Positions 15,290 to 40,165 of a stretch of DNA of 64,000 bases are shown here, piece by piece. Under the pieces are notes generated by a model. That model was not told the DNA's origin. It searched no databases and was given only the letters and a program-made list of their open reading frames with translations. The position numbers and the translations under genes were made by a program. Position 1 is the first letter of the stretch. Every line of letters begins with the position of its first letter. Source of the DNA: a virus; IMG/VR virus record IMGVR_UViG_3300020186_000001, positions 32,001-96,000 of that record. One strand, given 5' to 3'.

Positions 15290-15305
15290 CGAAAGGGAAT
15301 TAGAC

Positions 15306-16728: not shown

Positions 16729-17022
16729 GTGGCGTTACGATATTTACAAATTGAAGATACTACGGGGAGGGTGCAACGCGGCCCTGCAAGTGTCTCAGCC
16801 TCATGGACTGATGAGCAGTTCAGTGTTGGCGGTGGCGGTGTAGCCACAGTCTCCCTTGCTTCAACTATCACAGGCATCACCAAGATTGACGTGTATGTGA
16901 ATGGAGTTTTGAGACGCGAGGGTGCCGGAAATACTTGGGTTAGAAATGTAACCCCTGCTAGAATTGATTTCGCTGAAACTATCCCACAAAACGCATGGAT
17001 TCTTGTCAGAGTATGGAGTTAA
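16729..17022 (+). CDS. Small structural protein
   Basis: GTG start after AAGGA; IDVYVNG domain similar to repeats in 10860-13082. Confidence 0.6.
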   Translation: MALRYLQIEDTTGRVQRGPASVSASWTDEQFSVGGGGVATVSLASTITGITKIDVYVNGVLRREGAGNTWVRNVTPARIDFAETIPQNAWILVRVWS

Positions 17023-17025
17023 TAA

Positions 17026-20000: not shown

Positions 20001-20622
20001 TTTAACTGCCGATGGATATCAAACGATTGCCGTTTCCCTGATGTCAGGGGCCGACCGGACGATCACACTTCCAGCGACGGCGAGCAACGTGGGCCGAAAA
20101 ATCAGCGTCGTGAGAACTGCAACCGACGGAGAGGGTTCGTACAGAGTAATCATTAACGCCGCAGGCGCAGATGTCATTTACGGCGGACACTCCATCACAG
20201 CAACCACGTTAAACTTAGATCGAAGATTTCAATGTACAACGCTAGAGTGCCTTGCGTCAGGCATATGGTCACAAGTGGAAGCGACGGGCACAATCATCTT
20301 GGCAGCAAACTTAGATGGTAATTTTACAGCAGGAGCAATTTACGCCTATCGAATCGGGAACTCGATCACGATACAAATTTCAAGCCCCGCATGGACCGCT
20401 GGATCAACCTCGCGGTCGACCTCAGCAATCGTTTTACCGGCAGGGTTTCGTCCAGGAGTCAGAACAGTTTTTGCCTGCGCAGCTAGAAACGGATCCCACG
20501 GGTATGATGTTACATTTGTCGCTGAGACGACGGGGATTATCACAGTTCAGACAAGCGACGGCGCGGCGTCTAGTATGGACGATTACGCGGGCATATCCGG
20601 GAGTATTCTAATAAGGTTTTAA
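17026..20622 (+). CDS. Large tail fibre/adhesin with two LamG (concanavalin-like) domains
   Basis: SFGGWF...WNHISVT...LYINGQL...QDVF and FSYGGWF...WNHLASVYDG...LYVNGVQV...GRMQDVF; C-terminal YRIGNSITI...LPAGFRP fibre-tip motif. Confidence 0.85.
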   Translation: MPIDKQQSTQMVNEAQLPVLRTTARQELAAIFGLLNSELQSPLRLFASDPSDALLNIASNAVIGADGARKTILSADDAIGLFAATTINLQTAAIVGGTVQVQGAAFALPTTTIGQFRRLALVYSNSTNIVNTIFSAAAASVAALSDPVNLFTALDGTPIGYIDLEATAANAFKTAGSATSVVENSVGGTARIVKPAASGSGSGGGGGTDLKLQAIAANVGTLKKGFLRYDSTLIGLEADISFNLKTAVSSLGVVAPSASTSYYLYLDMGALPVSLTTHASVGFQYYAVSSGTTGMLVVLTADASTVDLSRYIPIALLRTDGSSNYALKADAARKIHSGPSVNVSPLVYEDSDHSIGTVGSAGQLATYGSLATTDFPNTTTLHVYGGNEASGTSLNDSASSPIALTGTATPLFNRVGFFGRETIPSTLNGSSQFWSSTNAEFSYATASGATSFGGWFYKENWADATARTLMSIGTAAATCIRLSLTTGNTVRVESFATSITPSASTSGMVGWNHISVTLSTTTARLYINGQLIGSATITSGTTGNGLFVGALNGASEFSNISIQDVFIHKGTVLTDSQVNVIASKRYKGKQIAGGHVLATDSFPLNSLASKVSYWNLATLNDSSGNGKTLTNVGSTPFTGLDIFGVSGVATLDGSSQRFTSADALFNPGNTPFSYGGWFSTDNWARSIQQLMGNNGASHTWRIHTDTTGIVFTCGTSAPTVVPSITPQAGSWNHLASVYDGTGAWYLYVNGVQVGTSSNTNTAAAGTFTLGANTAGSQSFFGRMQDVFFASVALSGLDILKLASARIDLPSNVAVRLQDQDWNGNFISEDGQTVNELSDAFLVDKDNTKIWAYFGGGSASRVNLRLYDGGLGATTVPVRKFDRSYTAALPTTIAHGLPSRPTSIEIQHNENADGRYVNLNAETYLKCDDTNIYTTTSSLTIDATRDVRIVASIGVPAIGAGGGATSTVAGTVTSFSPIVLSAVNTVSAAGYTILTADGYQTIAVSLMSGADRTITLPATASNVGRKISVVRTATDGEGSYRVIINAAGADVIYGGHSITATTLNLDRRFQCTTLECLASGIWSQVEATGTIILAANLDGNFTAGAIYAYRIGNSITIQISSPAWTAGSTSRSTSAIVLPAGFRPGVRTVFACAARNGSHGYDVTFVAETTGIITVQTSDGAASSMDDYAGISGSILIRF

Positions 20623-20786
20623 ATTTAGCGCGGGGTGTTGGTTCTATCGAGTCCCCAGGCACTTGGAATACAGTGCAGCTATTTGGCCACTCAAGCGGCA
20701 ATACCCTGACGCCAACAGAGCGAACGCTAATTATCAGGGATGTGCGAGAATGAATTCAGAATACGTCTCCGAAGGAGGACCAATAA

Positions 20787-20870
20787 ATGAGTAATCACTG
20801 GGTAATAAATAGTTCAACAAAGGCAATGATTGATCCAGACAACGTAACTTGGACGGAGGTGCCAGCATGA
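20787..20870 (+). pseudogene. 27-codon remnant resembling a tail-fibre assembly chaperone C-terminus
   Basis: GAAGGAGG RBS, MSNHWVINSSTKAMIDPDNVTWTEVPA*, ATGA-coupled to next gene. Confidence 0.4.
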
Positions 20871-21319
20871 ATCCGATAGATACTAAACTAATAAGTCAGA
20901 GTACGGGTATAGTCAAAAGCATCGAATACCTGCACAATTTTAACCAAACTGATGGGTCCAATACTACTGACTTTGATTATGGGCCCCAAGGTGCAAAATT
21001 TGGCACGATGACTGGCCAACAATTCAAGAGAATTTCTTGGAGGTTTCCACTTGGACCAGGCGATGTTTTAGAATTTGAACTTTCTGAGAACACCGGACAA
21101 AATTGGGCTAAAAATGCCGATTTTAGTATGATATGTTCGTGGTCCCTACAAACAACAACTGTTTACGGCTATCAAGTAGCTAACTTTACAGCGACAACTG
21201 CTGATGTTTATTTTGGTTTGTATAGGAACGTAGCCACCGGAGCCTATGGTGCAGCAGGATATGCGTGGACAGGGCTTAGCAGCCATCGCTGGAGAGTAAA
21301 GAAGACCGCTTATTATTGA
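20867..21319 (+). CDS. Fibre-tip-like orphan domain
   Basis: GGAGGT RBS before ATG 20867; 150 aa, aromatic/beta-rich, ends RWRVKKTAYY. Confidence 0.6.
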   Translation: MNPIDTKLISQSTGIVKSIEYLHNFNQTDGSNTTDFDYGPQGAKFGTMTGQQFKRISWRFPLGPGDVLEFELSENTGQNWAKNADFSMICSWSLQTTTVYGYQVANFTATTADVYFGLYRNVATGAYGAAGYAWTGLSSHRWRVKKTAYY

Positions 21320-21605: not shown

Positions 21606-22583
21606 ATGAAAACCTTGTTTCTAGTTCTTTTGCCCTTAATCACTAGCTGCGGTTGGGGACCATTCAAGAGGAAGCATGAGCAAGCAGACTCCACAACTCA
21701 AGGTCTTGACTTACTCGCCTCCAAAAAGCGACTCTACTGTGAACTGTCCAAAGACGCTTATGATAAAAAAGGGTATGTCGTTGCAAAATGCGACGGCTTA
21801 TTATTCACAAGCCTGCGGGGGATTGGCTGCCAAGATGCTGATGTCAGAGCTTTCGAAAGCACAGATAGACCAGGAAGATGGTACAGAAGTCCAACGCATG
21901 ATTGTTTTATCCCTTCTCAGGTGAATGTGGACAATGGAGCAAACTCCACTATCTCAAAAGACATGATACTCGGTCTCATGAACAACCTCTGGTATACTAA
22001 GAATCTAGCTGCTGTTGATCGAACTATTGAGTACGGCAAATCTCATAGCTGGATTATGGGCGAAGCCAAGGATGAAGCAACTGTCGCAAGCAAATGTGCG
22101 TTGTCTCCTGGCCTTATTTCAAACCTCTACGATATGCAGAGTAAACTGAATGGATCAGGACTTAATATTACTGCTCCAAGCTCAGAGGACGATGCTGTTG
22201 GAGTCAACACTGGATTCAGAGCACACTTGGATGTTCTACACGTCATTTTTTCCGGCTCTTTGTATGGTGCTATTAACGATATTCAAATCTCGACGTTGAA
22301 GAACCAGGCTAAAAGAATGCCTCGCAATGCTATGTATCAAGCTGCGAAATCAGCTTATGACGGTGGAGATCAGTCTGCGGCAGTGTCTCTTTTGATGGAT
22401 GAGAAAAGATTTCCTGCGGATCGTCTCCCGACATCTGCTGAATTTTGTTCAGATTACTTGTGGACAGATGATGACACCCCTAAAGATTGGGAGCCATGTC
22501 CCGATGGTAAGACTATCTATGAAGGACTTGACTTCATCATAGCCGCTTCAATTGCGGATGGATCATTCTTTAAGAGGCCGTAA
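21606..22583 (+). CDS. Putative lipoprotein
   Basis: MKTLFLVLLPLITSC signal/lipobox; 325 aa, several Cys. Confidence 0.7.
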   Translation: MKTLFLVLLPLITSCGWGPFKRKHEQADSTTQGLDLLASKKRLYCELSKDAYDKKGYVVAKCDGLLFTSLRGIGCQDADVRAFESTDRPGRWYRSPTHDCFIPSQVNVDNGANSTISKDMILGLMNNLWYTKNLAAVDRTIEYGKSHSWIMGEAKDEATVASKCALSPGLISNLYDMQSKLNGSGLNITAPSSEDDAVGVNTGFRAHLDVLHVIFSGSLYGAINDIQISTLKNQAKRMPRNAMYQAAKSAYDGGDQSAAVSLLMDEKRFPADRLPTSAEFCSDYLWTDDDTPKDWEPCPDGKTIYEGLDFIIAASIADGSFFKRP

Positions 22584-24911: not shown

Positions 24912-24942
24912 AATACATCGTACTTTTTCGTATTAAACTTTA
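24912..24942 (-). promoter_or_regulatory. Sigma28-like promoter motif, copy 1
   Basis: TAAAGTTTAATACGAAAAAGTACGATGTATT on - strand. Confidence 0.75.
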
Positions 24943-24994
24943 ATAAATCTTGATACATCAATCACATCATAAGGTTACGGTCTGTTGAAATCGT

Positions 24995-25034
24995 AAAAAG
25001 AAAAAACCCCGTAAGATGTTGATCCTACGAGGTT
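24995..25034 (-). terminator. Rho-independent terminator
   Basis: - strand AACCTCGTAGGAT-CAAC-ATCTTACGGGGTT hairpin followed by TTTTCTTTTT. Confidence 0.7.
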
Positions 25035-25077
25035 CATTCCGGTGGTTCTTAGTGGCTAAACGGAGAGCACCGGAAAT

Positions 25078-25374
25078 CTATGATTTAGTTAGCTTTTTCT
25101 TGGCCAACCTGAATCTTGGGTTCTTAAGGCTTTCTAGCTTCTTGAAATAGGCATCCTTATTCACGCCCATCCCAGCCTTAAAGCATCGTCCTTCAAAATC
25201 ACATGTTCCGCAAGTATTGTTCTCAAACTCCCAGAACCCGAAACACGATCCATCGACTGCCTTCAAATGTAGAGAGGACCGGACAATTGCAGCATTCAGG
25301 TATTCAACAGTGGCTTCTGGCAGAACTGGTATTCCACGAGCTTCACAATATTCAATCAGTTGTTTCTTGTTCAT
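25078..25374 (-). CDS. Small Cys-cluster protein
   Basis: Likely start MNKKQLIEYC (HeH/SAP-like N-terminus); C-x10-CxxC-x5-C. Confidence 0.65.
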   Translation of the reverse strand: MNKKQLIEYCEARGIPVLPEATVEYLNAAIVRSSLHLKAVDGSCFGFWEFENNTCGTCDFEGRCFKAGMGVNKDAYFKKLESLKNPRFRLAKKKLTKS

Positions 25375-25523
25375 GGCTTCGTTATTTTGCAACGCCTACA
25401 GTAATTAACTTTAACTACACTGCTATCGACTCTCTTGAACTTGTGACCTAAGATCATGCAAAGGTACTCTGCCAACTCGTCGAACCAGTCTCTCCTTACT
25501 CGGCTTGATTTTAAAATACTCAT
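25371..25523 (-). CDS. 50-aa Zn-finger-like microprotein
   Basis: MSILK...LCMILGHKF...YCRRCKITKP; coupled on both sides; not in ORF track. Confidence 0.6.
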   Translation of the reverse strand: MSILKSSRVRRDWFDELAEYLCMILGHKFKRVDSSVVKVNYCRRCKITKP

Positions 25524-27347
25524 TCATCCCCCTACAATTTTGGCCAGCTTTCGCATAGCATCTTTTGGCAAATCCTTTACGTTTTTAAGAACTATGTAAT
25601 CAGAATAGAAGTGCTTAACTGAGTCAGTTTCGATACCTATTCCGATACATTCAATGCCTGACTTTTCAATAAGCTTAACCTTGTTCTTAAGATCGGAGCA
25701 TAAGATGCCGCGATTGCCGTCACCTGTTGACGGTTCACCGTCACTTAGGACTAGGAGTATTTTACGCTTCTCTTTGCGATTGCCAACCCGCTTCGCTGCC
25801 CAAGACACACACTCGCCATCAGGGTTCTGGACTCCAACGAAGAGGCTTTCAATGCCGCTTAAGGATTGAGTATCAAATGACTTGAAGACGTGAAGCTCAA
25901 GCCGCTCTCTGGTGCGGTTGAATCGACTTATATCGGCCTTGCGAGCCATGTTTATAACATTGCGGTCATCTTCCGAGTAGAACCCTGTCACTTCAAAGGG
26001 TATCTGAAGGTCTTTCAAAGCCTCTGCCATCGCGACGCAGGCCATCTTGGCAGTTCTCATTCTGCCAACCATTGAGCCAGACATATCGACTAGAATCTCA
26101 ACTGCAACATTGTTGGTCTCAGTCTTAGTGAACGATTTAAAGACTCTTCTGTTGTTAGGATTGACAAGCATTTTGTTGAGACTACGTGCGTCAATCCTGC
26201 CTCGCTCTTTGTCCGAGGTCCACTTTGCATCTTCTTTGACTTTTAGAACACGCTCAAGTTGGGACTTGATCGGTGCAACAAGTGAAGCGACATCCTGCTT
26301 TAATCTTGCGTAGGCTTTTGCATCACCCTTGCCGCTATGATCTGTAACCTTGTCAAATCTAGTAGTGAGAGGGATGGATCGTGAGCCTTCAAATATCGGA
26401 CTCATCACACCGCGAGCAGTTTCTTTGACTTCTTGCTTAATTGCATCTTTGATCTCTTTATTGATGAGACTGTGAATGTCATGGACGTGCTCATCAAACT
26501 TAGAATCTTTTGCATCAGGCTTCTCATCAAGCATCCTTCTTATTGCGGAAGGGCGACCACTACTGTCAGATAGCTTCTTCCCTTTCTTTGGACTACTTTC
26601 GCCTTCACTGGGAGTCTCACTTGAGCCTTCTCCTTCTCCTTCTCCTTCTCCTTCTCCTTCTGGACTTTCACTTTCAGGATCACCTCCGGTAGAGTCACCT
26701 TTTTCGCCTTTTCCTGAATCCTCTGGTTTCGACTCTCCATCTTTGGAGCTTTCACTACTTTTTTCTTCACGTTCTTTTTCCTCTTCTTTCCCAATCAATC
26801 GAACAATTTCTTCAGTAGCAACTCGAAGCTCAACAGTTGAATTGCAAGCTCCAAGGACGCTGGCCTTCTCACGCACAGCTTCTATATACCTTTTAGTATC
26901 CTTGTCAATACGAGGTTCTAAGCCTTCCATCATATCTGAGACGGCAAGTATGATCCTCACCAGCGGAGCGATCTCACTCCACTCATCGCTAATTCTTTTG
27001 CGAAGCTTCACATTGAGAGGATTTATATTGAAGGCAGTGCCAGGAAACTCATTAATAATCGCCTTCTCAATACGATTGTCTTCAGCCGCATTCAGCATGA
27101 TCTTATGAAAGTTTGAAATCACATATTTAATTTCATCCATTTTAGTGAACTTGCAATGAGCGACCTCGTGATCAAGATAGCCGTTCAGGTCTGCCCTTAG
27201 TTCTGGAGTGATATTAGTGAAGCTTGGGAGCACAATCTTTTTGCCGTCAGTGTAAGCCCCACTGCCTTCAAAGATCACATCAATATGGTATTGGCGAGCA
27301 ATGATACGAGCAATTTTCTCAAGAGAGGATTCAAATAAGTGACTCAT
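25524..27347 (-). CDS. vWA-domain protein (CobT-like partner of MoxR AAA)
   Basis: AYTDGKKIVLP, HEVAH metallopeptidase-like motif, acidic GE linker, MIDAS DMSGSM and LSDGEP. Confidence 0.9.
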   Translation of the reverse strand: MSHLFESSLEKIARIIARQYHIDVIFEGSGAYTDGKKIVLPSFTNITPELRADLNGYLDHEVAHCKFTKMDEIKYVISNFHKIMLNAAEDNRIEKAIINEFPGTAFNINPLNVKLRKRISDEWSEIAPLVRIILAVSDMMEGLEPRIDKDTKRYIEAVREKASVLGACNSTVELRVATEEIVRLIGKEEEKEREEKSSESSKDGESKPEDSGKGEKGDSTGGDPESESPEGEGEGEGEGEGSSETPSEGESSPKKGKKLSDSSGRPSAIRRMLDEKPDAKDSKFDEHVHDIHSLINKEIKDAIKQEVKETARGVMSPIFEGSRSIPLTTRFDKVTDHSGKGDAKAYARLKQDVASLVAPIKSQLERVLKVKEDAKWTSDKERGRIDARSLNKMLVNPNNRRVFKSFTKTETNNVAVEILVDMSGSMVGRMRTAKMACVAMAEALKDLQIPFEVTGFYSEDDRNVINMARKADISRFNRTRERLELHVFKSFDTQSLSGIESLFVGVQNPDGECVSWAAKRVGNRKEKRKILLVLSDGEPSTGDGNRGILCSDLKNKVKLIEKSGIECIGIGIETDSVKHFYSDYIVLKNVKDLPKDAMRKLAKIVGG

Positions 27348-27348
27348 G

Positions 27349-28419
27349 TTATTTGCCTCCCGCATTGCCAATCATGACACGTTGAATAATACCTTTGATC
27401 ACTTCCGCATCCTCTGGACTAATCTTATTCAAAATTGAGGTTTGGGCTGCTTTCATAGGATCACGGTATCGCACCATGAGCTTTGCCCAATCAAGCATCC
27501 TGCGAAGTGAGAACGTGCATTGTATCTCTTCTTTGTTGAAAGACTCTCGAATCATGCCAGCGACTTTGACAATCACTGTTGCGATCTTGACAGTCAACTT
27601 TGGGACAGAAGCAACAAGGACTTTGGCCTCTTCATCGGCTGGCAGATAATTGACGTGATAGACGCTCCAACGATCAAGGAAAGCTTCATTCATTAGATTA
27701 GTGCCTTGATACAAAGACCTGAATTGAGACATACACCCAACCGTATTGGCTGTTGCAAAAACTCTAAACTCAGGATGAGCGTGAACAACTTCGTGATCTC
27801 TTTCTTTTAACATCAAGGCACCGCTTGGCTCTAAGACGCTATTAAGAACTGAGAGGATCTCTTGCCCTGCAAAGTCAATCTCATCGAGAATCATCCAATA
27901 ACCCTCACGCATGGCTTTCGGCAGCACCCCGTCAACCCATACCATCTCGCCACCACGAACGCTCCACATGCCTACGAAATCAGAGATTGTCATTTGACCG
28001 TTTAAATTGACTCGAATAAGATTGTTCTTAGTGCGAGCTGCGATCTGCTGAATGATGGAAGTTTTGCCACAGCCAGTGTGACCTGTTAGCATGATTCTTC
28101 TGTTCTCCAAGATGTCAGTGCAAATATCACTGGCAAAATCAGAGAAGAAGAAAGCCTCATTTATGGCTGGGACAAAAACGCTGCCATTCGCAAGCGGCAT
28201 CTCAACATCACCAATCTTAATTGAGTCTTCTGACACGGCATCACTCCCACTCCAAACAACCTGGGTTTCATCGACATCGAACTTAAGCATATACCATGCA
28301 AGGATTCCATCTGCGAACTTGGAACCCTCTGGATGGCCAGCGTGCTTCTTCTCGATGTGATCAACTAGATCATCCGATTTGAAATCACAAATTTTACAAC
28401 TCAAATGCTTCTTACTCAT
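27349..28419 (-). CDS. MoxR/CobS/CbbQ-type AAA+ ATPase with N-terminal C2H2-like finger
   Basis: GHTGCGKTS, ILDEID, ATANT, AFLDRW; start MSKKHLSC after GGGGAG RBS. Confidence 0.9.
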   Translation of the reverse strand: MSKKHLSCKICDFKSDDLVDHIEKKHAGHPEGSKFADGILAWYMLKFDVDETQVVWSGSDAVSEDSIKIGDVEMPLANGSVFVPAINEAFFFSDFASDICTDILENRRIMLTGHTGCGKTSIIQQIAARTKNNLIRVNLNGQMTISDFVGMWSVRGGEMVWVDGVLPKAMREGYWMILDEIDFAGQEILSVLNSVLEPSGALMLKERDHEVVHAHPEFRVFATANTVGCMSQFRSLYQGTNLMNEAFLDRWSVYHVNYLPADEEAKVLVASVPKLTVKIATVIVKVAGMIRESFNKEEIQCTFSLRRMLDWAKLMVRYRDPMKAAQTSILNKISPEDAEVIKGIIQRVMIGNAGGK

Positions 28420-28463
28420 ACAATGTTCTCCCCGTTTAGCCTTGGTTTTAGAACTTACATTGT

Positions 28464-28494
28464 AATACATCGTCATATTTTGTATGAAACTTTA
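28464..28494 (-). promoter_or_regulatory. Sigma28-like promoter motif, copy 2
   Basis: TAAAGTTTCATACAAAATATGACGATGTATT. Confidence 0.75.
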
Positions 28495-28503
28495 GGGAAT
28501 CTG

Positions 28504-28758
28504 TCAACTAGCTTTACTGACTAGCTTATTTTGCTTAACAAATTCATCCATTCCGAACGCTAGTAGGATTAGGACTGCCTCGGTTTTACTGACTTTCCGC
28601 GATCCTGGACCTCTTTGAGCCTCCAAGACCTTGATCGCTTGATCAATAAAGTGCTCTTGCTTCTCATTCAAACGAATGGTCAGCATTCTGATTTTCAATT
28701 CATCGTGCTCAATCACATTCTTGGCTTTCATACTCTTGCTCCTCTTTACATATTTCAT
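28504..28758 (-). CDS. Ribbon-helix-helix-like DNA-binding protein
   Basis: RMLTIRLNEKQEHFIDQA...SKTEAVLILL pattern; GGGAG RBS. Confidence 0.6.
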   Translation of the reverse strand: MKYVKRSKSMKAKNVIEHDELKIRMLTIRLNEKQEHFIDQAIKVLEAQRGPGSRKVSKTEAVLILLAFGMDEFVKQNKLVSKAS

Positions 28759-28772
28759 GAAACACTCCCTGT

Positions 28773-29618
28773 TTATATCAACCCTGATACGCTACACGCT
28801 TGCTGCATGGTGATATCGTGAAGATCCAATATCTTCCTAATGTCTTCTTGATAACCACCTGCCAGTGCAAACGCACAACCCTTTTTATGTTTTTTGCAAT
28901 ACTCAAAAACAATGCGATCTCTTCTGCGAATTTGGTCAACCGTGAAAACACCTCCTAATGGATCATTGATAAAACTATCCATACCTGCGTTGTATATGAT
29001 GAGACTGCAACCCTTAAATTGCCTCTTAAGGAACTTCGGTAGTGCTTTAAGCCAAGCCTCAGCGTCATCTGAGCGAACATCTGAATAGCCAAGGCTCCAA
29101 TGAGAGATATTCAAATCAAGTTTTTCTATGATGTCTTTTGTCCCATTCCCTGCGTGAGCATCAACATCAAAAATGCCAACCTTGCGAGCTAACCCTTTTT
29201 CTAGGACTTCAACTGCTCCAAGGACCAGGCTTCCGAAAGTGCAAAAGCCTCCGCCATGGCTATATGTGGCGTGATGGCTGCCACTGGTAGGAGACGCACA
29301 GATTTCCTTAGTTTCAGCGGCATGAACGGCTGCTGCCACCATGGAGCCACAAACCCAAGGGAGAGCGTCAGCGACACTCTTGAGCCTATTGTGGAACCCA
29401 TTATCTTGAGTACAGCTTAAAACGCCTTTAACGTAGCTGGGATCGTGTATCTTGCTTATCTGCTTGATAGAGGATGGTCTGAATGACCTGACCGCTACGG
29501 GCAGTCCTAGTGCCTTCCAGGACGCGACAACCTTTGCAGGCTTACCTGCCGATGGGCTAAAGCTATCGTTGTCTAAAACTGTTTGTTTTTCGTTGTAAAA
29601 CACCATAACCCTACTCAT
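28773..29618 (-). CDS. Zn-dependent histone-deacetylase-family (HDAC/AcuC/APAH) hydrolase
   Basis: GSHHA, GGFCTF, DVDAHAGNGT, NAGMD...DPLG and LAGGY motifs all present. Confidence 0.92.
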   Translation of the reverse strand: MSRVMVFYNEKQTVLDNDSFSPSAGKPAKVVASWKALGLPVAVRSFRPSSIKQISKIHDPSYVKGVLSCTQDNGFHNRLKSVADALPWVCGSMVAAAVHAAETKEICASPTSGSHHATYSHGGGFCTFGSLVLGAVEVLEKGLARKVGIFDVDAHAGNGTKDIIEKLDLNISHWSLGYSDVRSDDAEAWLKALPKFLKRQFKGCSLIIYNAGMDSFINDPLGGVFTVDQIRRRDRIVFEYCKKHKKGCAFALAGGYQEDIRKILDLHDITMQQACSVSGLI

Positions 29619-29645
29619 ACATCGCCTCCTTGTTGCTTACAATAT

Positions 29646-29676
29646 CATACATCGTCATTTTCCGTCTTAAACTTGA
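29646..29676 (-). promoter_or_regulatory. Sigma28-like promoter motif, copy 3
   Basis: TCAAGTTTAAGACGGAAAATGACGATGTATG. Confidence 0.7.
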
Positions 29677-29708
29677 GTAAAACTCAATACACTAGTAATA
29701 TCATCGCT

Positions 29709-30380
29709 TTAGTGAGTCTTCGTTGTTTTTGATTTAGAAGCTTCGGCTTTTGGGATACTCAAGCCTTCATCACTAATCTGCGAACACTCGTATTTAGTCA
29801 AAGAAGACTCAAAGGTTGAAAGGATGACTGGCTCAGACTTGCGGTCAACAATCTCAACTTCAGCACTGGCAGCAAAGTTGAAGCAGAACCTTTTGACTTC
29901 AGAATCTTTAGTCAATTTAATCGAGATACGCTTCACGGCTTTCAATCGGTATTGGCCGTCAGAGGTGTCTGAGGGCAGGCGAAAGAAGAAGGTGTCATCT
30001 GAGCCTAGATAAGCCCTGCCAGCGGCACCATGGCCGTCTGAGGCAGCAAGGAACACCGTCATGCCTTGAGTGAGGTCTTTGAACCCAAGCTTAGCGTCAA
30101 ACTCTGCGTCATAGCCCTTGTACCCTGCGTCAGCGATCCTCTTAGCTAGACGGTCAACCTCGGCTGTGTAGTAGGCTTCAATGTCTCTGTAGTGCTCACC
30201 GTCAACACTCACATCAAAGGCACCTGAGACGGAGCCTGTGACTGATATCAGGCCAAGCTTTTCTTTAGGGCATTCTGCCTTGGATGAGTCTTTGGCACAG
30301 TCAATTTGGCTTTTGTCGTTAGTCATCTGACCGCAGGCTGTGTTTAAAATCACTGTTAGAATCGCTAGTTGTGTCTTCAT
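29709..30380 (-). CDS. Putative lipoprotein
   Basis: MKTQLAILTVILNTAC lipobox-like; AAGGAG RBS. Confidence 0.7.
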   Translation of the reverse strand: MKTQLAILTVILNTACGQMTNDKSQIDCAKDSSKAECPKEKLGLISVTGSVSGAFDVSVDGEHYRDIEAYYTAEVDRLAKRIADAGYKGYDAEFDAKLGFKDLTQGMTVFLAASDGHGAAGRAYLGSDDTFFFRLPSDTSDGQYRLKAVKRISIKLTKDSEVKRFCFNFAASAEVEIVDRKSEPVILSTFESSLTKYECSQISDEGLSIPKAEASKSKTTKTH

Positions 30381-30428
30381 TTGATACTCCTTTTTAAAGT
30401 TACATTAGAATCATCACGCTTATATTAT

Positions 30429-30458
30429 AATACATCGTCATACAGCGTAAAAACTTTA
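30429..30458 (-). promoter_or_regulatory. Sigma28-like promoter motif, copy 4
   Basis: TAAAGTTTTTACGCTGTATGACGATGTATT (TAAA-N15-GACGAT). Confidence 0.75.
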
Positions 30459-30505
30459 ATGTTTCTTAGAATATCAATGAAATCATCAACTTGTAATCAG
30501 ACCTT

Positions 30506-31492
30506 TCATTCATCACCTCTTTTAAAACGTGAGCTTTTAGTTTTAGCGGCTTTTAAATCCTCTTGAAGTTTGAGCGAGGTACAATCCTTGGCGTTCAAGT
30601 CATCACGAAGCCTATGGAATGTCGGGTGTCTCAGCCTTCCAACAGGATTGTCCTTAGAGCGTTTTGAGGCTTGTATCTCTTGAGTGAAGACATCGACGAC
30701 CTTGCCCTTATAGGCATCGAAGTTTCGTCCCATATCAATTCGCAAGGTGTCGTCAAACCCAGATGCAAACCCAATCTCAATCAACTCTCCATTGTGATGC
30801 ACTGAGAGAGCGAGCGATCCAATGCTATCTGCGTACTTGCCGTTGCCAGCTTTCCAACCTGAAATAATACAACTCACATCGTAGGACTTTTTCATTTTGC
30901 ACCAGCCCATCCCGTAGCCTTGACGCAGGTCTTTCACGATAACGCCCTCGCCACCAGCGTTAACGATGCTTTGAAAATACTTGTGTATGTCGCCTGTGAA
31001 TTGTTCGATTGGTTTTATATATTTGTTATTCATTCTCTCAACAACAGCGACTAGGATTTTTCTACGCTTCTCAAGTGGAAGTCCTCGAAGATCCTTCCCG
31101 CGAAAGCGAACGATGTCGAAGACGTGATAGTTTAAAAATCCAAGCTCCTTTTGCTTTTGAACTGCAAGCATTGGCGAAGAATTCATGATTGAGTTTGTAG
31201 CGAGAAAATTCTCAGCCATGATCTCTCCGTCCAGTACCGTCCCTTGGAGATCTGCATACATCAGAGCGGTGATGTGAGGAACATTCGCAGTCCTATCAAC
31301 GTGCTTAGTGTCAACAACTGAGACTCTTCTTGAGAGAAGAGCATTGTTCGCTTGCCTCTCATACGGATCACAGCCGATATAAAGAACGTAGCGAGAACCA
31401 TCCATCTTAGGCTCTGCAACCAAATGAGGTTTTTCAAGGTCATTGGGCAAGATGCTAGTGCATCGTGATGGAATGATGAGTTCTACTTTCAT
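30506..31492 (-). CDS. ATP-dependent DNA ligase
   Basis: EPKMDGSR (KxDG), LDGEI, YHVFDI, GEGVIVK, KMK, LRHPTF. Confidence 0.93.
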   Translation of the reverse strand: MKVELIIPSRCTSILPNDLEKPHLVAEPKMDGSRYVLYIGCDPYERQANNALLSRRVSVVDTKHVDRTANVPHITALMYADLQGTVLDGEIMAENFLATNSIMNSSPMLAVQKQKELGFLNYHVFDIVRFRGKDLRGLPLEKRRKILVAVVERMNNKYIKPIEQFTGDIHKYFQSIVNAGGEGVIVKDLRQGYGMGWCKMKKSYDVSCIISGWKAGNGKYADSIGSLALSVHHNGELIEIGFASGFDDTLRIDMGRNFDAYKGKVVDVFTQEIQASKRSKDNPVGRLRHPTFHRLRDDLNAKDCTSLKLQEDLKAAKTKSSRFKRGDE

Positions 31493-31815
31493 ATCTGCCT
31501 CAACTGTTGCATGAAGTTTAAAACTGGTTCGTCCTTCTTAATAGGGTCTTTCATAGGATCTTTCGGCCTCTGATACGGATGCTCTGAAGCAGAGCCTACC
31601 TTCACATAGCCTTTTGCAATCTTCTCGCGAATCTTTTTGTATACTGTGTCAGTACCCAAATACTCGGTCTCCTGCGGAGCAGCACCGATCCTTCCCCAAG
31701 AGGCGACATAGAGCGGCTGAGAGTGATCAACCGCTCTTATCTCCCAATATTTATTAGAACGCTCATCGGTATATTCATACCTGCCCAGAAAATCTAATAT
31801 CTCCCACTCATTCAT
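31489..31815 (-). CDS. WGR-domain protein
   Basis: SNKYWEI...SWGRIG...EKIAKGY. Confidence 0.85.
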   Translation of the reverse strand: MNEWEILDFLGRYEYTDERSNKYWEIRAVDHSQPLYVASWGRIGAAPQETEYLGTDTVYKKIREKIAKGYVKVGSASEHPYQRPKDPMKDPIKKDEPVLNFMQQLRQI

Positions 31816-31927
31816 CGCAATCCCCTTTGTAAAGTGATTGAGTCAAATCTGCATACCAGTGCTCGAAGGTGAGATTGCACTCACCTGAAGCGACAAGATC
31901 AATCCACAAATCGTGAATGGTTCCCAT
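31808..31927 (-). CDS. 39-aa microprotein (paralog of 24515-24634)
   Basis: MGTIHDLWIDLVASGECNLTFEHWYADLTQSLYKGDCDE; starts right after upstream TAA, overlaps WGR start. Confidence 0.75.
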   Translation of the reverse strand: MGTIHDLWIDLVASGECNLTFEHWYADLTQSLYKGDCDE

Positions 31928-32545
31928 TTAGTCCCCCAGGATATCTGCCAGATCGTCATCGGCTGACTTGGACTTAGATTTTGCCTTCTCAACTGCAAGT
32001 TTTGCGGCTGCAAGTTTTGACTTAGAATCAGTCTTCGGTTCGGCTTTTGGTTTAGGAGCAACCTTTGGAGCGGCAGGAGCGGAAGCCTCAGATGGATTGA
32101 ATTGCTCTTCGACTTTAGTTTTAAATTCAGAACTTGCTCTCAATGTCAAATACTCAGTTGAAGTCTGGGATGCTAGACCTGAGAACTTTGATTCGCCGAT
32201 GGCAGTCTTCAGCTTTTCAGCACTGAAGTTGCAAGCGTTAAGAATTGTTGCAAGAGTGACGTGGCCTGATTCTACTAACTCAAGAATTTTGTCGGTATCA
32301 AACTTCCAGTTCGCCCTCGAAGTATAGATCACCGATCCTTGATCACACTTGAATCCTTTTCCCATGTCGATCTCAAAGCCATCATCGTTTTTTTCAAGGT
32401 AGGCAATGATCTCGCCCTTGTCAGCCTTGAAGAGGTCTTCATACTTTGAAGACAAGGCTTGATCGGTAAACGCTCGAATTAGAATCTCATCGAGTTTTTG
32501 AGGAACACTGTTTGAATCTTTTTTTCCGCCGCGATTGATAGTCAT
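31928..32545 (-). CDS. Hypothetical protein with K/A/P-rich tail
   Basis: 205 aa; AAGGAG RBS; downstream of promoter copy 5. Confidence 0.75.
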   Translation of the reverse strand: MTINRGGKKDSNSVPQKLDEILIRAFTDQALSSKYEDLFKADKGEIIAYLEKNDDGFEIDMGKGFKCDQGSVIYTSRANWKFDTDKILELVESGHVTLATILNACNFSAEKLKTAIGESKFSGLASQTSTEYLTLRASSEFKTKVEEQFNPSEASAPAAPKVAPKPKAEPKTDSKSKLAAAKLAVEKAKSKSKSADDDLADILGD

Positions 32546-32572
32546 GATGATGAATCTCCTTGTTTGTTATTT

Positions 32573-32603
32573 AATACATCGTACTTTTTCGTATGAAACT
32601 TTA
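32573..32603 (-). promoter_or_regulatory. Sigma28-like promoter motif, copy 5
   Basis: TAAAGTTTCATACGAAAAAGTACGATGTATT. Confidence 0.75.
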
Positions 32604-32627
32604 ATAAATCTTAATACCCCAATCAAA

Positions 32628-32885
32628 TCAGGTCACTTTGTTGTTCTTAATAATTTCAGTGAGGCGGTGTATCTCGATCTTAATAGCCGAGAAATATTCG
32701 TTTCTTGCTTCTTTGAGTGATCTGAAGCCGTAAAAGTCGAAATTGTCCTTGCGAACTCGATACAGGGTTTGACAGTCGCGTTCTAGCTTGGTGAAGGTGT
32801 CGCCAGTTTGAACCTTGTATTTTTCGATTTCACCGTCAGTTAGGCGATTTAGGTTATAACGATAAAGTGTTGTTGGGGATTTCAT
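32628..32885 (-). CDS. Hypothetical protein
   Basis: 85 aa; TAAGGAGGT RBS. Confidence 0.75.
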   Translation of the reverse strand: MKSPTTLYRYNLNRLTDGEIEKYKVQTGDTFTKLERDCQTLYRVRKDNFDFYGFRSLKEARNEYFSAIKIEIHRLTEIIKNNKVT

Positions 32886-32920
32886 GAGAACCTCCTTAGT
32901 TGTGTTGATAACCCCTATAT

Positions 32921-33100
32921 TCAGACCTTTTTAATTTCGGTAAGAAGGTGAAACAGCTTATTTTCTGCCTCCCTTAGCCTTATAGAGAATGTTCTAGCTC
33001 CCTTGCCGTTTTTAGCATTCTTGCAAAGGTCTATAGCACGCAGCAGTGCTTGAATCTGACCTTCAGTTAGGATGCTCGTTTTGACTTTTTCGTAACCCAT
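32921..33100 (-). CDS. 59-aa hypothetical protein
   Basis: GAGGT RBS; MGYEKVKTSILTEGQIQALL...EIKKV; below ORF-track cutoff. Confidence 0.65.
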   Translation of the reverse strand: MGYEKVKTSILTEGQIQALLRAIDLCKNAKNGKGARTFSIRLREAENKLFHLLTEIKKV

Positions 33101-33140
33101 TGTTTACCTCACTTTGTTGGTTTAACCCCACCTTATAATG

Positions 33141-33171
33141 CATACATCGTACTTTTGTGTATGAAACTTTA
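33141..33171 (-). promoter_or_regulatory. Sigma28-like promoter motif, copy 6
   Basis: TAAAGTTTCATACACAAAAGTACGATGTATG. Confidence 0.75.
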
Positions 33172-33206: not shown

Positions 33207-33228
33207 AAAGTTTCTACGTAGAAACTTT
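33207..33228. promoter_or_regulatory. Perfect 22-bp palindrome, copy 1 of 3
   Basis: AAAGTTTCTACGTAGAAACTTT. Confidence 0.7.
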
Positions 33229-33259
33229 GCCGTAGATGCCGATGCCCTTATAATGGAAA

Positions 33260-33330
33260 GGCAGGGTGGAGAAGTGGTATCTTGCTAGGCTCATAATCTA
33301 GAGACGAGGGTTCAATTCCCTCCTCTGCAA
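33260..33330 (+). tRNA. tRNA-Met(CAT), initiator-like, CCA not encoded
   Basis: Acceptor GGCAGGG/CTCTGCA, D stem GAGA/TCTT, anticodon arm CTAGG-CTCATAA-TCTAG, T arm GAGGG-TTCAATT-CCCTC; TTGCCG-N16-TATAAT upstream. Confidence 0.88.
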
Positions 33331-33387
33331 CTGATCAGGCACAGACTTTGCAAGCAGACATTTCATAATCTTAAGAGGGAAAATGAA

Positions 33388-33645
33388 ATGCAACTGTCAA
33401 ACGGCAAAGAAAAACGTGGATACGCCATTGTGCGGGACTTAGACGAATTAAGGCGTGAGGTAGAAGACGCACGCAGAGCCATCAGAAGCTCTCGCGAATT
33501 TGTACTAAAACCGTATCTAAATGACTCCACTGGTCAAATAGACTTGACCAGGCGTGTCGCAGCAATCAAAGCAATTAGTCATTATGATAGGTTGATGCGG
33601 TCATATGAGTCTGATTGGGATGAAAAGCCTGCATACCTGGAATAG
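33388..33645 (+). CDS. Hypothetical protein
   Basis: 85 aa, GAGGG RBS. Confidence 0.65.
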   Translation: MQLSNGKEKRGYAIVRDLDELRREVEDARRAIRSSREFVLKPYLNDSTGQIDLTRRVAAIKAISHYDRLMRSYESDWDEKPAYLE

Positions 33646-36056: not shown

Positions 36057-36574
36057 AATTCAGCCTGTCTTGCGTGCTCTCTTCTCTCAACATCAGAATG
36101 AACCTGAGATATAAACTGATCGTAAAGCTCTTCACCGTAAAGCGTGATCGTATTAAAGCTAGGTCTAAAGCTTCTTCTTTGAAAACCTTTGTGGATGCAA
36201 GCTATCATCATGTGCATATTATATTCGTTTTCTTCCATGTATTGAATTGCCCCCTCAATGACAGTGAGTTGACCTTTGGTTTTTACTTTGATTGGAGATA
36301 GGTCAAAATAGAACTCACGCCATTTATTCCAGCACTCAAGAAAGCCTCTAACAGAACGAAGCCTCTCATCGTGTTCGATAAGACTTTCGACTTTTGTTTC
36401 TACCTTTTTGTTTTTCTTAGCTACCGGCTTAATTAGTATGTTCTGAACAACAATCTTTTTTGCTAAGCATGAAAATCTGCTAGCCAGTTCTCTTGCAGCT
36501 TTTTCTGCGTCAAATGAATTTCCAGGCTCTCTCCGAGTGATTTCGATTTGCATAAGATGGATTGGTGTAGACAA
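36053..36574 (-). CDS. Hypothetical replication-module protein
   Basis: 173 aa between sigma and DnaB, coupled to DnaB. Confidence 0.6.
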   Translation of the reverse strand: MSTPIHLMQIEITRREPGNSFDAEKAARELASRFSCLAKKIVVQNILIKPVAKKNKKVETKVESLIEHDERLRSVRGFLECWNKWREFYFDLSPIKVKTKGQLTVIEGAIQYMEENEYNMHMMIACIHKGFQRRSFRPSFNTITLYGEELYDQFISQVHSDVERREHARQAEL

Positions 36575-37005
36575 TTTGCTTCCCTCTCTCTAAACATTTT
36601 CAATCTAATAATTTCACGAATGGAATAGCCCTCAACGTAAATATGCTGGTAAAGCCGATACTCTTTCTCGTTCAACAAAGTCTTCATGGTGAGATCAAAA
36701 TCAACTCCCTCTTGATATGTGCCTGCCAGTTCTGGGAGTTCGCTCACATAATCAAGAGACGGCTTTGAACGCTCGTAATCGCCGATATCCATGAGATGAT
36801 TGTTGACACAGGCGTATACCCAAGTTTTTATCTTCGTGTTCTTTTTTGCGTCATACTTCCTAACAGCAATCTCTGCCGCGAGCCTCGCCTCTTGCAACAG
36901 ATCATCGAATGTATTGTTTACTTGTGACGAAAAGTTCGTTTGCTTTCGCCGAAACTTATGCACCAGATAACAAAGAAGTTCATTCAGCTCGGTTGCTTCC
37001 ATCAC
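36463..37005 (-). CDS. Phage sigma70-family sigma factor (compact)
   Basis: Region 2 FDDLLQEA...AVRKYD...KIKTWVYACVNN; region 4 LNEKEYRL...EGYSIREI. Confidence 0.85.
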   Translation of the reverse strand: MMEATELNELLCYLVHKFRRKQTNFSSQVNNTFDDLLQEARLAAEIAVRKYDAKKNTKIKTWVYACVNNHLMDIGDYERSKPSLDYVSELPELAGTYQEGVDFDLTMKTLLNEKEYRLYQHIYVEGYSIREIIRLKMFREREANCLHQSILCKSKSLGESLEIHLTQKKLQENWLADFHA

Positions 37006-37197: not shown

Positions 37198-38061
37198 CTA
37201 CTCTAGGATGGTAATTCTGAACGCAGATTCTTTGCGGTATGATTTAAGTCTTTCCAAGCTATGATCACGAAGATGTCTTTGCCCTTCGATCATAAAATCA
37301 TAAACTTCGGCTTTATCTTTGCCTTCATGTTTACGTAGTGTCCTACCGATGCCCTGCGATGTTTGAATCTCAGTCTTTTGACAACGGGCATTAATAAGAA
37401 CATCAATTGTTGGAATATCTATACCTTCGCCAAAGATGTTAGTAGCGACAAGACATTTAAACCTTTTTTTAATAAACTCTGATTTAACACGCTCTCTATG
37501 ATCGGTCGGATCGTCACCGCTTAAATATTCAGCATCATTACCAATCAGTCGCACAATGGCTCTACCATGCTCTTTGCGTCGAACTAGAATGAGTGTTTGC
37601 TTGCCCTCGGTGTATGCCTTGCTAATCGCGAGTCTGGCGATCTTAAGATTAAAACTTTCATCCTTGGTGATATACTCGTAAGCTCTCGCATAGCTACACT
37701 TCAAATTCGGCACAGTGTGTTTGATCATGGTTATATACGGCCTAACTAAATACCCCTCTTCAATCAGCTCACTTGTGGATTTCTTGAAGATTACCTGTGA
37801 AAGAACACCGTACATCTCCATATCAGATCCATCGGATCTCATGAAAGTCCCAGTGAACCCGTAGCGGTAGTAGGCACTGCGGCAATATGCGTTCACAGTT
37901 TTGTAGGTTTTCGCTGCGGAATTTGACACTAATATGCCATTAGCAACAAAGTTGTGATTGCCTTCAACCTCTAGGTCGTAGACGTCAAAATCTCCACAAA
38001 CTTCTTCAATCGAGACAATCCGTCCTTTGAGCAATTTTCCGGTATCCTGACAATTTTCCAT
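37198..38061 (-). CDS. Split-intein C fragment (47 aa) + C-terminal half of DExH helicase
   Basis: TAAGGAGG 5 nt before ATG; VYDLEVEGNHNFVANGILVSN/S intein end; GFTGT, FGEGIDIP, QGIGRTLR helicase motifs. Confidence 0.9.
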   Translation of the reverse strand: MENCQDTGKLLKGRIVSIEEVCGDFDVYDLEVEGNHNFVANGILVSNSAAKTYKTVNAYCRSAYYRYGFTGTFMRSDGSDMEMYGVLSQVIFKKSTSELIEEGYLVRPYITMIKHTVPNLKCSYARAYEYITKDESFNLKIARLAISKAYTEGKQTLILVRRKEHGRAIVRLIGNDAEYLSGDDPTDHRERVKSEFIKKRFKCLVATNIFGEGIDIPTIDVLINARCQKTEIQTSQGIGRTLRKHEGKDKAEVYDFMIEGQRHLRDHSLERLKSYRKESAFRITILE

Positions 38062-38771
38062 CCCAGCCTCCTTAGCCTTTCGCTCTTTCTTCGATCTGAT
38101 TCTTCGCGACCTTTATGAGAGCTTCCATCAACTTCGATGGCGATCATGTGGCGTGGGATGGCCACATCGATCTTGTAATGATGTGGCCTCTCCTTGTCTC
38201 TCAGGGCCACTGAAAGCTCTGAGATGCTTTCTGGCAGCATCTTGGAGATACGATCCTGCGTCGGCGTGGTCCTGCCTCCGTTACCGTATTTGCCGCGACC
38301 GTAAGGGTTGTAGCTGCCATCGTCAATCAGCTTTTTAATCTTTTTGGATTGTCGTTTTCGAACTTCTAAAGAGCGATTTCTGTTTTGATCTCCAGCACGT
38401 CTGGAGAGATACTCTCTGTACTCCGTATTCAAACTTCTCTTCCGCATAGCCGCAGCATGAGTGCTGTATCCAAGAACCACCTCATCACCAACCTTCATCG
38501 AACCTATTTCAACTTTGCCATGCTCGGTGAGCATCTTATGCTTGCGAGTAATAAGAAGTTCTTTAATCTTCCCATCTTCATCTTGAATTTTAACCTTTAA
38601 AAGATCAGAAGATTTGTATTTGAAAGCGTTAGTAACAAGCCTGTTCTCCCATTCAGTCCCATTCCAAGATTTGACTTTTGTTTGAAATCCAGACACAACC
38701 CTATTGTAAATCCACTCAATTGACCTGTATGCGCCATATCCTGCTGAAATCATTGTGTTTTTGGCGAGGCA
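37921..38771 (-). mobile_element. Split intein with homing-type endonuclease in helicase motif II
   Basis: Cys1 codon at 38771-38769; terminal Asn codon at 37923-37921 followed by Ser; two overlapping frames. Confidence 0.85.
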
Positions 38772-39419: not shown

Positions 39420-40165
39420 ACCAGGTGAGTACCAAAGAGATCCAGAAGTTTATAGCTTTTAAGTCCTCAGTGAATCATTTAATTTCCATCAATGATGTAA
39501 ATTTAAGCATTTTTTCTTTGTACTATTTTGTAATATCTTGTATGAAGTTCATTATTTAGGCAGTAAAAAAGAGGTCTTTTCTTTAACGATAATCTGGCTT
39601 TATACGATTTGTGTAAAATAGTGCTTGACACATTTTTCGTTATCCCCCCTTAATAATCCCCTAACCTTCTAACGCTTCGATTAACCATAGATAGCTTAAA
39701 CGAACCAAAACACTTCCTGCTTCACTTGAAAACCAATCAAACTCTCTGCCTTAAAAAACTGTTTCATTCTCTTCTCTTTTAGTTTTGTTTGTCTGCTTCA
39801 AAGACAATCAAACTCTCTACCTTAAAAAACTGTTTCATTCTTGTTTCTTTTTATTCTTAAAGTTATCACCTTTTTTTTTACTCTTTTTTGTTTTTTTAAA
39901 AAACAGGTATATACCCTTCTCCAAAGCATCCAATTCCTTTTTACCGTTTTAAGAAAAGAAGAATTCCCTTTCCTCTTAAAGATATTTCTTATTAATCTTA
40001 TAATATCTTATCAAGCTTAAAGTATCATAACAGTTATACAGTATTCTAAGAGAATAAAGATTGAATATTAGAATTGATTTCTAAAGATGTATGATCTTGT
40101 TGTACGATGTAAGAAAATGTAATAAATAAGATCTTAGGAATAGCTCATGATTTGATTTAGTTTAA
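39420..40165. other. AT-rich non-coding divergent region (candidate origin/control region)
   Basis: No ORF of 60 aa or more; T/A tracts; gene orientation diverges here. Confidence 0.5.
39734..39841 (+). repeat. 37-bp direct repeat x2 (one mismatch), 71-bp period
   Basis: CAATCAAACTCTCT(G/A)CCTTAAAAAACTGTTTCATTCT at 39734 and 39805. Confidence 0.9.

Follow-up and report, generated by a model that had tools for sequence, protein, structure and literature searches.

How does a phage come to head its accessory genes with promoters that resemble those of bacterial flagellar genes, and which sigma factor reads them? The question is raised by a window of 64,000 nucleotides (positions 32,001 to 96,000 of the IMG/VR virus record IMGVR_UViG_3300020186_000001), in which a search for the pattern AAGTTT-N10-14-CGATGTAT gives six matches, every one on the minus strand, against none in shuffled sequence (mean 0.00). 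All six have the architecture TAAAGTTT-N11/12-(G/T)ACGATGTAT. Every copy carries the nonamer ACGATGTAT unchanged; five share the -35 box TAAAGTTT, the other having TCAAGTTT instead, and the spacer is N12 except in the site at 30430, where it is N11. The initial annotation, made from the letters alone, had written this consensus exactly, spacer included, and had placed the six copies within one base of the positions given here. It had also suggested a motif scan of the whole genome. When both boxes are scanned over all 108,329 bp, the same six sites return at 0-1 mismatch, and the next best has at least three mismatches. All six are intergenic. From the end of the -10 box to the start codon there are 28-52 nt, and an AAGGAG-type ribosome-binding site precedes each start, in agreement with the short distance described at the outset. 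About 70 nt are conserved around the sites, from an A/T-rich block upstream to an ATGTAAG-like stretch downstream, and invariance is limited to the two boxes. Because it is confined in this way to two boxes at a fixed distance, the pattern has the signature of a sigma factor. An RNA element in place of a promoter was rejected, as RNAalifold predicts no pairs for the six sites and Rfam matches only the tRNA. So was a second promoter motif for another sigma: when the upstream regions of the phage were all tested for enriched dyads and k-mers, only the six-site motif and a palindrome emerged. An exact-motif scan of IMG/VR gave single chance matches only, in 78 contigs. In the best explanation, to which as a whole we give about an even chance, these are genuine promoters of the sigma-28 (FliA) class that start six separate leftward units in the accessory block (Table 1), and their reader is a FliA-like sigma made by the phage. 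The existence of the sites, their uniqueness, their promoter-like placement, the recurrence of the class in relatives and the FliA-like nature of the phage sigma are shown; which sigma reads the sites, and when, is what we infer below.

Table 1. Putative promoters and related features; positions are those of the window, except for the first row
Feature	Position	Strand	Details
FliA/WhiG-like sigma, ~226 aa	G000:C1:2053-2733		Gene flanked by terminase and portal, ~30 kb to the left of the window; from the TIGR02479 search
Seventh candidate site of the same class	22481..22507	+	CTAAAGATT-N11-CCCGATGG
Putative promoter 6	24913..24942	-	Heads 70-aa and 94-aa ORFs (24861 to 24213)
Strong intrinsic-terminator-like hairpin	25004..25035	-	14 pairs and a T run; ends unit 5 shortly ahead of promoter 6
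Putative promoter 5	28465..28494	-	Heads CobS-like AAA ATPase, CobT-like VWA protein, 50-aa and 104-aa ORFs, to 25078
Putative promoter 4	29647..29676	-	-35 box TCAAGTTT; heads HDAC-family deacetylase and 84-aa ORF (29618 to 28504)
Putative promoter 3	30430..30458	-	Sole copy with the sigma-28 consensus spacer N11; heads 223-aa ORF (30380 to 29709)
Putative promoter 2	32574..32603	-	Heads 205-aa ORF, WGR-domain protein and ATP-dependent DNA ligase (32545 to 30506)
Putative promoter 1	33142..33171	-	TAAAGTTT-N12-TACGATGTAT; heads 59-aa and 85-aa ORFs (33100 to 32628)
Minimal two-domain sigma (domains 2 and 4), 180 aa	36463..37005	-	In the replication operon; less likely reader
Degenerate copy	40082..40112	+	TAAAGATG-N13-TACGATGT, then AATGTAAT; precedes rightward early ORFs

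At the head of the block, promoter 1 comes directly after the gene for primase and a small islet of tRNA on the plus strand. In the fifth unit, the true start of the CobS-like ATPase is probably the ATG near 28419. A terminator-like hairpin closes this unit before promoter 6, which therefore defines an independent unit. Two further sites lie on the plus strand. That at 22481-22507, unnoticed in the initial annotation, reaches a position-weight matrix score of 21.3 against a background of at most 17; it is located within the 3' end of a 325-aa ORF, and four small genes, the last ones in the rightward late block, come after it. The weaker copy at 40082-40112, which had been reported before the rightward genes, does exist, with three mismatches and a spacer one base longer, and is probably weak or non-functional as a promoter of this class.

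How close are these sites to the flagellar class? The published sigma-28 consensus is TAAAGTTT-N11-GCCGATAA (PMC2859248). Against it, the six-site motif matches the -35 box, TAAA(GTTT) in the class, at 8/8 positions, possesses the CGAT core, and has a spacer of 11 or 12; the sigma-28/FliA-type label proposed earlier is thus justified. The -10 element, (G/T)(T/G)ACGATGT, agrees with GCCGATAA at 4/8 positions: G-12, A-11 and T-10 are retained, and C-13, the extended GC and the final AA are not. The class-3 flagellar promoters read by FliA, SigD or WhiG share with the phage sites an identical -35 octamer and a nearly equal geometry (TAAAG-N16/17-CGAT), and the form TCTAAAG of the Pseudomonas aeruginosa -35 element is also seen in the phage. 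They differ in that the phage spacer is one base longer than the 11-bp standard in 5/6 sites, the GC at -15/-14 (the extended -10) is absent, position -13 has A where the consensus has C, GT stands in for the final AA, and an extra invariant GTAT follows. Moreover, the phage sites precede ligase, deacetylase and CobS/CobT-like genes, whereas class-3 promoters precede motility genes.

Relatives of the phage keep the class, though not always at the same genes. The relative G001 has four sites, CTAAAG(A/T)TT-N11-(G/T)CCGATGA, ahead of the orthologous HDAC, CobS, CobT and 369-aa genes; they match 14-15 of 16 consensus positions, and the spacing is exactly N11 in 4/4. Two others, G004 and G002, have a site of this class in the orthologous position ahead of the operon for prohead protease, scaffold and capsid, and their orthologous accessory positions have canonical sigma-70-type promoters instead. 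In the head operon of our phage, the CGAT box is lost. Other routes to relatives were less productive: megablast of the region against named phages gave no match and tblastn weak partial matches only, peptide-pattern scans with the 180-aa sigma or DnaB alone gave no useful match, and sigma alignments against metagenome and genome collections recovered no relatives. Pfam searches of the terminal genes, aimed at lysis genes and Gram type, returned nothing usable.

If a FliA-type sigma reads the sites, does the phage have one of its own? A search with the FliA_WhiG model TIGR02479 found a second sigma in this genome, as well as in G002, G003:C1 and G004. The best NCBIfam matches of this 226-aa protein are FliA_WhiG (1.9e-21) and FliA PRK06986 (2.2e-17); its 76.8 bits against TIGR02479 are under the curated cut-off of 189.6, and this is still the top-scoring family. 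Among solved structures, the top matches are P. aeruginosa FliA, WhiG and E. coli FliA. Region 2.3-2.4 reads KFKTYAEYRIKGAVLDEVRK in the phage protein and SFETYAGIRIRGAMLDEVRK in P. aeruginosa FliA, and the helix of domain 4 reads SESRASQL and SESRVSQL, respectively. In P. aeruginosa sigma-28, Y76, R80, D87, S224 and Q228 contact -11A, -12G, -13C and bases of the -35 element (PMC12784957). Equivalents of all five are kept in the 226-aa sigma when it is aligned to the P. aeruginosa FliA chain 9wsf, on a residue numbering that presumes an offset of five residues from a tag; the R, the D and the adjoining stretch are invariant in 31 family members. The protein does not have the complete three-domain architecture of group-3 sigmas (domains 2, 3 and 4): alignment to true FliA leaves a gap of ~55 residues at domain 3, and the AlphaFold model (pLDDT 81) consists of domain 2, a linker, domain 4 and a beta-ribbon, with an 18-residue linker of low confidence where domain 3 would be. 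Thus, compared with the cellular FliA/WhiG sigmas (9wsf/9wsm, 6pmi, 1rp3, 7lq4), region 2.3-2.4 and the recognition helix of domain 4 are almost identical, while domain 3 is gone, a zinc ribbon has been added at the C-terminus, and the gene is placed between terminase and portal. The missing domain fits promoters without the GC of the extended -10, which domain 3 reads in sigma-28. The anti-sigma FlgM contacts all three domains (PMC12784957), and the loss of domain 3 may let the phage sigma escape it.

The likeliest cognate reader of the six promoters is this 226-aa sigma, a reading about which we stand midway between belief and doubt. It would bind the host core RNA polymerase, recognise TAAAG at -35 through the domain-4 helix, and recognise CGAT at -10 through region 2.3-2.4. 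Reading a promoter ahead of the head operon, where G004 and G002 have one, is a classic task of a phage-encoded sigma. Several points speak against it. The sigma gene opens the structural module; with the ligase, HDAC and CobS/CobT genes under its control, that block would be on rather late, contrary to expectation. A genome with a sigma of this type need not have many sites: in G008 the recognition residues of the sigma are identical, yet no site stands out from chance, and just one or two sites of the class are present in G003 and G004. The head operon of our phage is without the CGAT box, and the G001 fragment leaves out the region where a FliA-like sigma of G001 would lie. Finally, at the orthologous accessory positions of G004 and G002, promoters of the sigma-70 type hint at reading by host sigmas.

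The last point leads to the rival that survives best, namely that host FliA alone reads the six promoters, so that the accessory block is expressed as soon as infection begins, though only if the cell is motile and has free sigma-28, and the phage FliA-like sigma serves other, late targets. We consider this unlikely. The motif itself fits the sigma-28 consensus, as described above, that of G001 fits at exact N11, the host-type promoters of the relatives make the genes look early, and a Pseudomonadota MAG which holds related phage contigs encodes a true FliA (286 bits). On the other side, all six copies deviate alike from the FliA consensus, and for FliA no role of the extra GTAT is known; a Flavobacteriales bin contains one relative, and no FliA match above the cut-off was obtained there. 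That the phage starts transcription with host FliA, as was first proposed, is possible, and it is not the best reading, because the phage encodes, outside the window, a FliA-like sigma with the same DNA-contact residues, and because relatives place the class before a late operon for head morphogenesis. Since the contact residues of the 226-aa sigma are those of FliA, host FliA could probably fire the six promoters too, and the two readings are therefore not mutually exclusive. As to which host this might be, the MAGs with related contigs, one of Flavobacteriales and one of Pseudomonadota, conflict, and tblastn with DnaB and DnaE gives mixed hosts, mostly Gram-positive, at ~30% identity. Bdellovibrio, mentioned in the initial annotation, may be suggested by one weak lead: the nearest cellular match of the 226-aa sigma is a Halobacteriovoraceae FliA.

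The other phage sigma, the 180-aa protein which had been named as the alternative reader, would be made from the replication operon upstream and would then turn on, as a middle class, the genes of the block immediately after it. As a two-domain sigma it is genuine (Sigma70_r2 at 4.5e-7, model pLDDT 90), and its fold matches SigH, SigL and WhiG; its gene is upstream of the sites on the same strand, G001 shows the same order of sigma and then motif-headed genes, and minimal sigmas typically use rigid bipartite promoters, e.g. gp47 of phage 7-11 (PMC8948821). However, no FliA model is found among its NCBIfam matches, a Cys occupies the position of the -12G-contacting Arg of group-3 sigmas, and the recognition helix of domain 4 differs. 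All relatives retain a sigma of this type at ~30% identity, even those with sigma-70-like accessory cassettes, and the proteins of this phage and G001 are no closer to each other than to those of other relatives. Its family profile matches best a region 2 of the SigK/SigE/SigF type, then WhiG and SigH; its 28.6 bits against the sigma70-ECF model TIGR02937 are below the cut-off of 42.9, which does not place it in the ECF class (group 4), and the fold search does not separate ECF from group 3. It is thus the weaker of the two phage candidates and, we think, quite unlikely to be the reader.

Very improbable is that the sites are sigma-70 promoters or operators, the boxes being targets of an activator or repressor from the phage, or that the blocks serve mainly as recombination cassettes, as the promoter-early stem-loops of T4 do: several copies have a -10-like TAnAAT hexamer after the box, TACGAT is similar to TACACT, the -10 of homologous cassettes in G004, ATGTA recurs with a 10-bp period and the ~70-nt blocks look like copied cassettes, but the hexamer is not conserved, most copies have no usable sigma-70 -35 box at 16-18 bp (2/6 reach the scan threshold), nothing like a sigma-70 -10 stands at the box in the sites of G001, and invariance of two boxes at a fixed distance is what a sigma leaves behind. 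A phage RNA polymerase as reader was rejected: the scanned proteins include none, and the ORF of 1425 aa encodes an intein-containing polymerase of DnaE type.

Phage-encoded sigmas with private promoter sets are well known. T4 gp55 and SPO1 gp28/gp33-34 each have a promoter class of their own, and the SPO1 cascade employs two sigmas, as many as this phage has. So do phiEco32 gp36 (tAATGTAtA, six promoters) and gp47 of the Salmonella phage 7-11 (GTAAtg-N16-aCTA) have their own classes (PMC8948821). These systems resemble ours in a small and highly conserved promoter set (6-8 copies), a lytic phage, and a divergent sigma on the host core enzyme. In contrast to them, the probable reader here can be recognised as a derivative of FliA, with promoters that mimic a class of a host alternative sigma; kinship with gp36, whose promoter element contains a similar-looking ATGTAT, was rejected, as BLASTP shows no protein similarity. 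In the literature searched, and by tblastn against 50,697 phage records, we found no described case of a phage sigma that is recognisably FliA-derived together with promoters which imitate the host flagellar class.

What would such a system mean? It might be possible, unlikely though we find the scenario as a whole, that the phage has captured and pared down a host flagellar sigma, which evades FlgM by loss of domain 3 and gain of the zinc ribbon. The six promoters would then be of dual use, fired at once by host FliA in motile cells and later by the FlgM-proof phage copy; this copy could also force on the host class-3 flagellar and chemotaxis genes. In a widespread group of phages with genomes of roughly 105-119 kb, the exchange of promoter cassettes of sigma-70 and sigma-28 type would then suffice to shift genes between early and late programmes. 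The relatives compared here provide a natural example of a change of promoter class at orthologous positions. The findings suggest a link between the timing of phage genes and the motility state of the host, and a possible way around the FlgM checkpoint. Metagenomes often contain the family of the 226-aa sigma: contigs of up to 119 kb encode more than 110 clusters of it at 90% identity, and thus a whole uncultured group of phages may share this wiring.

The pattern AAGTTT-N10-14-CGATGTAT occurs six times, always on the minus strand, and was never obtained in 100 shuffles of the sequence, so that the six copies proposed in the initial annotation are borne out. When the entire genome is scanned with both boxes, the same sites stand out, with 0-1 mismatch versus at least 3 in all else. 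The aligned copies have ~70 nt in common, of which only TAAAGTTT and ACGATGTAT are (near-)invariant, with a gap of 12 bp in five copies and of 11 bp in the sixth. All are intergenic, with 28-52 nt between the end of the box and a start codon that has a ribosome-binding site of the AAGGAG type. An enrichment search of the regions upstream of the phage's genes gave no other motif. Judged from their sequence, the six sites are promoters. Ahead of promoter 6 a 14-bp terminator hairpin ends the unit, and ahead of promoter 1 lies a plus-strand islet that sets the accessory block apart from the replication operon; the block would therefore depend on its own promoters. Two more near-consensus sites, oriented against rightward genes, may be chance matches or antisense promoters.

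The ends of the 108,329-bp IMG/VR record, of which the window is bases 32001-96000, overlap by 127 bp, and the assembly is therefore circular; similarity searches against named phages found no close one. The short leftward block (39383 to 24213) carries an intein-split helicase, a 180-aa sigma, DnaB and primase, then the accessory genes, and the divergent rightward block of ~92 kb carries small early ORFs, a DnaE-type polymerase, recombination genes and terminase, then head and tail genes. The 750-bp control region from which they diverge could be an origin or a region of non-coding RNA. The 85-aa ORF of the islet has no family match. Capsid and sigma alignments gave six related records: G001 (41-kb fragment), G002, G003:C1, G004 and G008 (104-115 kb each), and G009/G010. 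An 18-bp palindrome, AGTTTC-TACGTA-GAAACT, has six genomic copies, each at a gene end or in an intergenic gap; one lies upstream of promoter 1, at a distance of ~40 nt. Three copies with the same arms and the core GACGTC occur in G001, and in G008 GTTTC-N6-GAAAC precedes at least six genes. The palindrome might serve a dimeric regulator as operator or act as a weak terminator in both directions. The deacetylase and the CobS-like/CobT-like pair are conserved in this phage and in G001-G004, and only the deacetylase was found in G008.

Features of the phage and of its relative G004 (window coordinates, unless G000:C1, the whole genome, or G004:C1 is given)
Feature	Location	Strand	Remarks
Promoters 1 to 6	33142, 32574, 30430, 29647, 28465, 24913	-	
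Near-consensus site	42114-42138	-	intergenic; TAAAGCTT-N11-GCCGATCA
Near-consensus site	60122-60147	-	intergenic; TAAAGTTT-N12-CTGCGATC
FliA-like sigma	G000:C1:2053-2733		~226 aa
180-aa sigma	36463-37005	-	
UvsW-type helicase, two overlapping ORFs	37198-39383	-	intein-splicing and DUF559/REase matches at junction
DnaE-type polymerase	46348-50625	+	intein with LAGLIDADG domain
Rightward islet within leftward block	33227-33645	+	sigma-70-like promoter TTGCCG-16-TATAAT; tRNA-Met 33260-33331; 85-aa ORF
HDAC-family deacetylase, CobS-like AAA/CobT-like VWA pair	25524-29618	-	
Divergent control region	~39620-39850		perfect TTGACA (39626) directed right; two ~40-bp direct repeats near 39733 and 39805
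Palindrome copies	33209-33226, 42148-42165, 61525-61542; G000:C1 ~9235-9252, 28902-28919, 99366-99383		
Sigma-70-like cassettes, ~50 nt each	G004:C1 ~10300-21000	-	TTGACT-N17-TACACT, then GTATTCA and shared leader

To which class do these promoters belong? The initial description of them as sigma28/FliA-like is warranted. Compared with the sigma-28 consensus, TAAAGTTT-N11-GCCGATAA (PMC2859248), they agree at every position of the -35 octamer and retain G-12, A-11 and T-10 of the core. In most the spacer exceeds the consensus by one base; position -13 is A instead of C, there is no GC 'extended -10', and the final AA is GT here, after which AT is invariant. These departures are uniform across all six copies.

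A genome search with the FliA_WhiG model located a second sigma between terminase and portal, ~30 kb left of the window. Its best NCBIfam families are FliA_WhiG (1.9e-21) and FliA (2.2e-17), both below cut-off, and among solved structures it is nearest to P. aeruginosa FliA, WhiG and E. coli FliA. Region 2.3-2.4 and the recognition helix of domain 4 are nearly those of FliA, and the alignment contains equivalents of Y76, R80, D87, S224 and Q228 (the numbering assumes an inferred 5-residue tag in the chain), which in the P. aeruginosa structure are assigned to -11A, -12G, -13C and -35 bases (PMC12784957). The phage protein lacks ~55 residues of domain 3, which in sigma-28 reads the GC extended -10, exactly the element absent from the phage promoters, and it ends in a CPxC...CDxC ribbon. 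Orthologues exist in G002, G003:C1 and G004, a cold-shock-like gene preceding that of G002 and G003; the family is abundant in metagenomes, and among named phages only weak partial matches were found. We give this sigma about an even chance of being the reader of the six promoters, a reading that accounts for the promoter class, for its occurrence ahead of head genes and for the way in which all copies deviate alike from the cellular consensus. Against it, late timing is implied, odd for a ligase, and site number is decoupled from sigma presence in G008, G003 and G004. SPO1 and T4 have sigmas with private promoters. So do phiEco32 (gp36) and 7-11 (gp47) (PMC8948821). In the literature searched, no phage sigma derived from FliA turned up together with sigma-28-type phage promoters.

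That host FliA alone fires the promoters, as first proposed, is rather unlikely, even if the quality of the match to the sigma-28 consensus speaks for it, as does the presence of sigma-70 promoters in the relatives at orthologous positions; both readings could hold because the contact residues are shared. The sole pointer to a Bdellovibrio-like host is the nearest cellular match of the phage FliA-like sigma, Halobacteriovoraceae FliA (38% identity over 37% of the query). Contigs of this phage group (CAYRMV010000001.1 and JAYVBB01) that are binned in a Flavobacteriales MAG (there a whole phage genome of 108.8 kb, 36% GC) and in a Pseudomonadota MAG are conflicting, unreliable hints. The 180-aa sigma, the other reader first considered, is a real two-domain sigma (Sigma70_r2, 4.5e-7; model pLDDT 90; fold matches including SigH, SigL and WhiG), and is kept in all four relatives tested (G001-G004); its family comprises ~35 representative clusters (50% identity) at E <1e-10. 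Its region 2 resembles SigK/SigE/SigF, the family search found no FliA signature, and Cys occupies the position of the -12G-contacting Arg of group-3 sigmas, so that it is improbable as the reader. A conserved tail past domain 4 (LTQ..LQ..WL..S in the family alignment), a single long helix in the model, could be a motif for docking. Least probable are sigma-70 acting together with a phage factor and a role other than that of promoter; as for an RNA element, the six copies have no common fold and no Rfam match.

How is this promoter class distributed among the relatives? In G001, four CTAAAG(A/T)TT-N11-(G/T)CCGATGA sites lie ahead of the orthologues of HDAC, CobS, CobT and a 369-aa gene. G004, the nearest relative in pairwise identity, has at orthologous positions five or six sigma-70-pattern cassettes, whose -10 side resembles the TACGATGTATT stretch of this phage, and G002 has TTGACA-N17-TATAAC there. 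Upstream of the prohead protease-scaffold-capsid operon, G004 and G002 have a TAAAG-N16/17-CCGAT site in the same place, of which the CGAT box is lost in this phage. G003 has one good sigma-28-like site, and the scan of G008 found none above chance, although the recognition residues of its FliA-like sigma are identical. Cassettes are more alike within one genome than versus their orthologues, a likeness of sequence that suggests concerted evolution and promoter-class swapping. From the pattern of sites among the relatives, therefore, promoters of this class are a property of the phage group; in some members they serve late genes, and which genes they precede differs from one relative to another.
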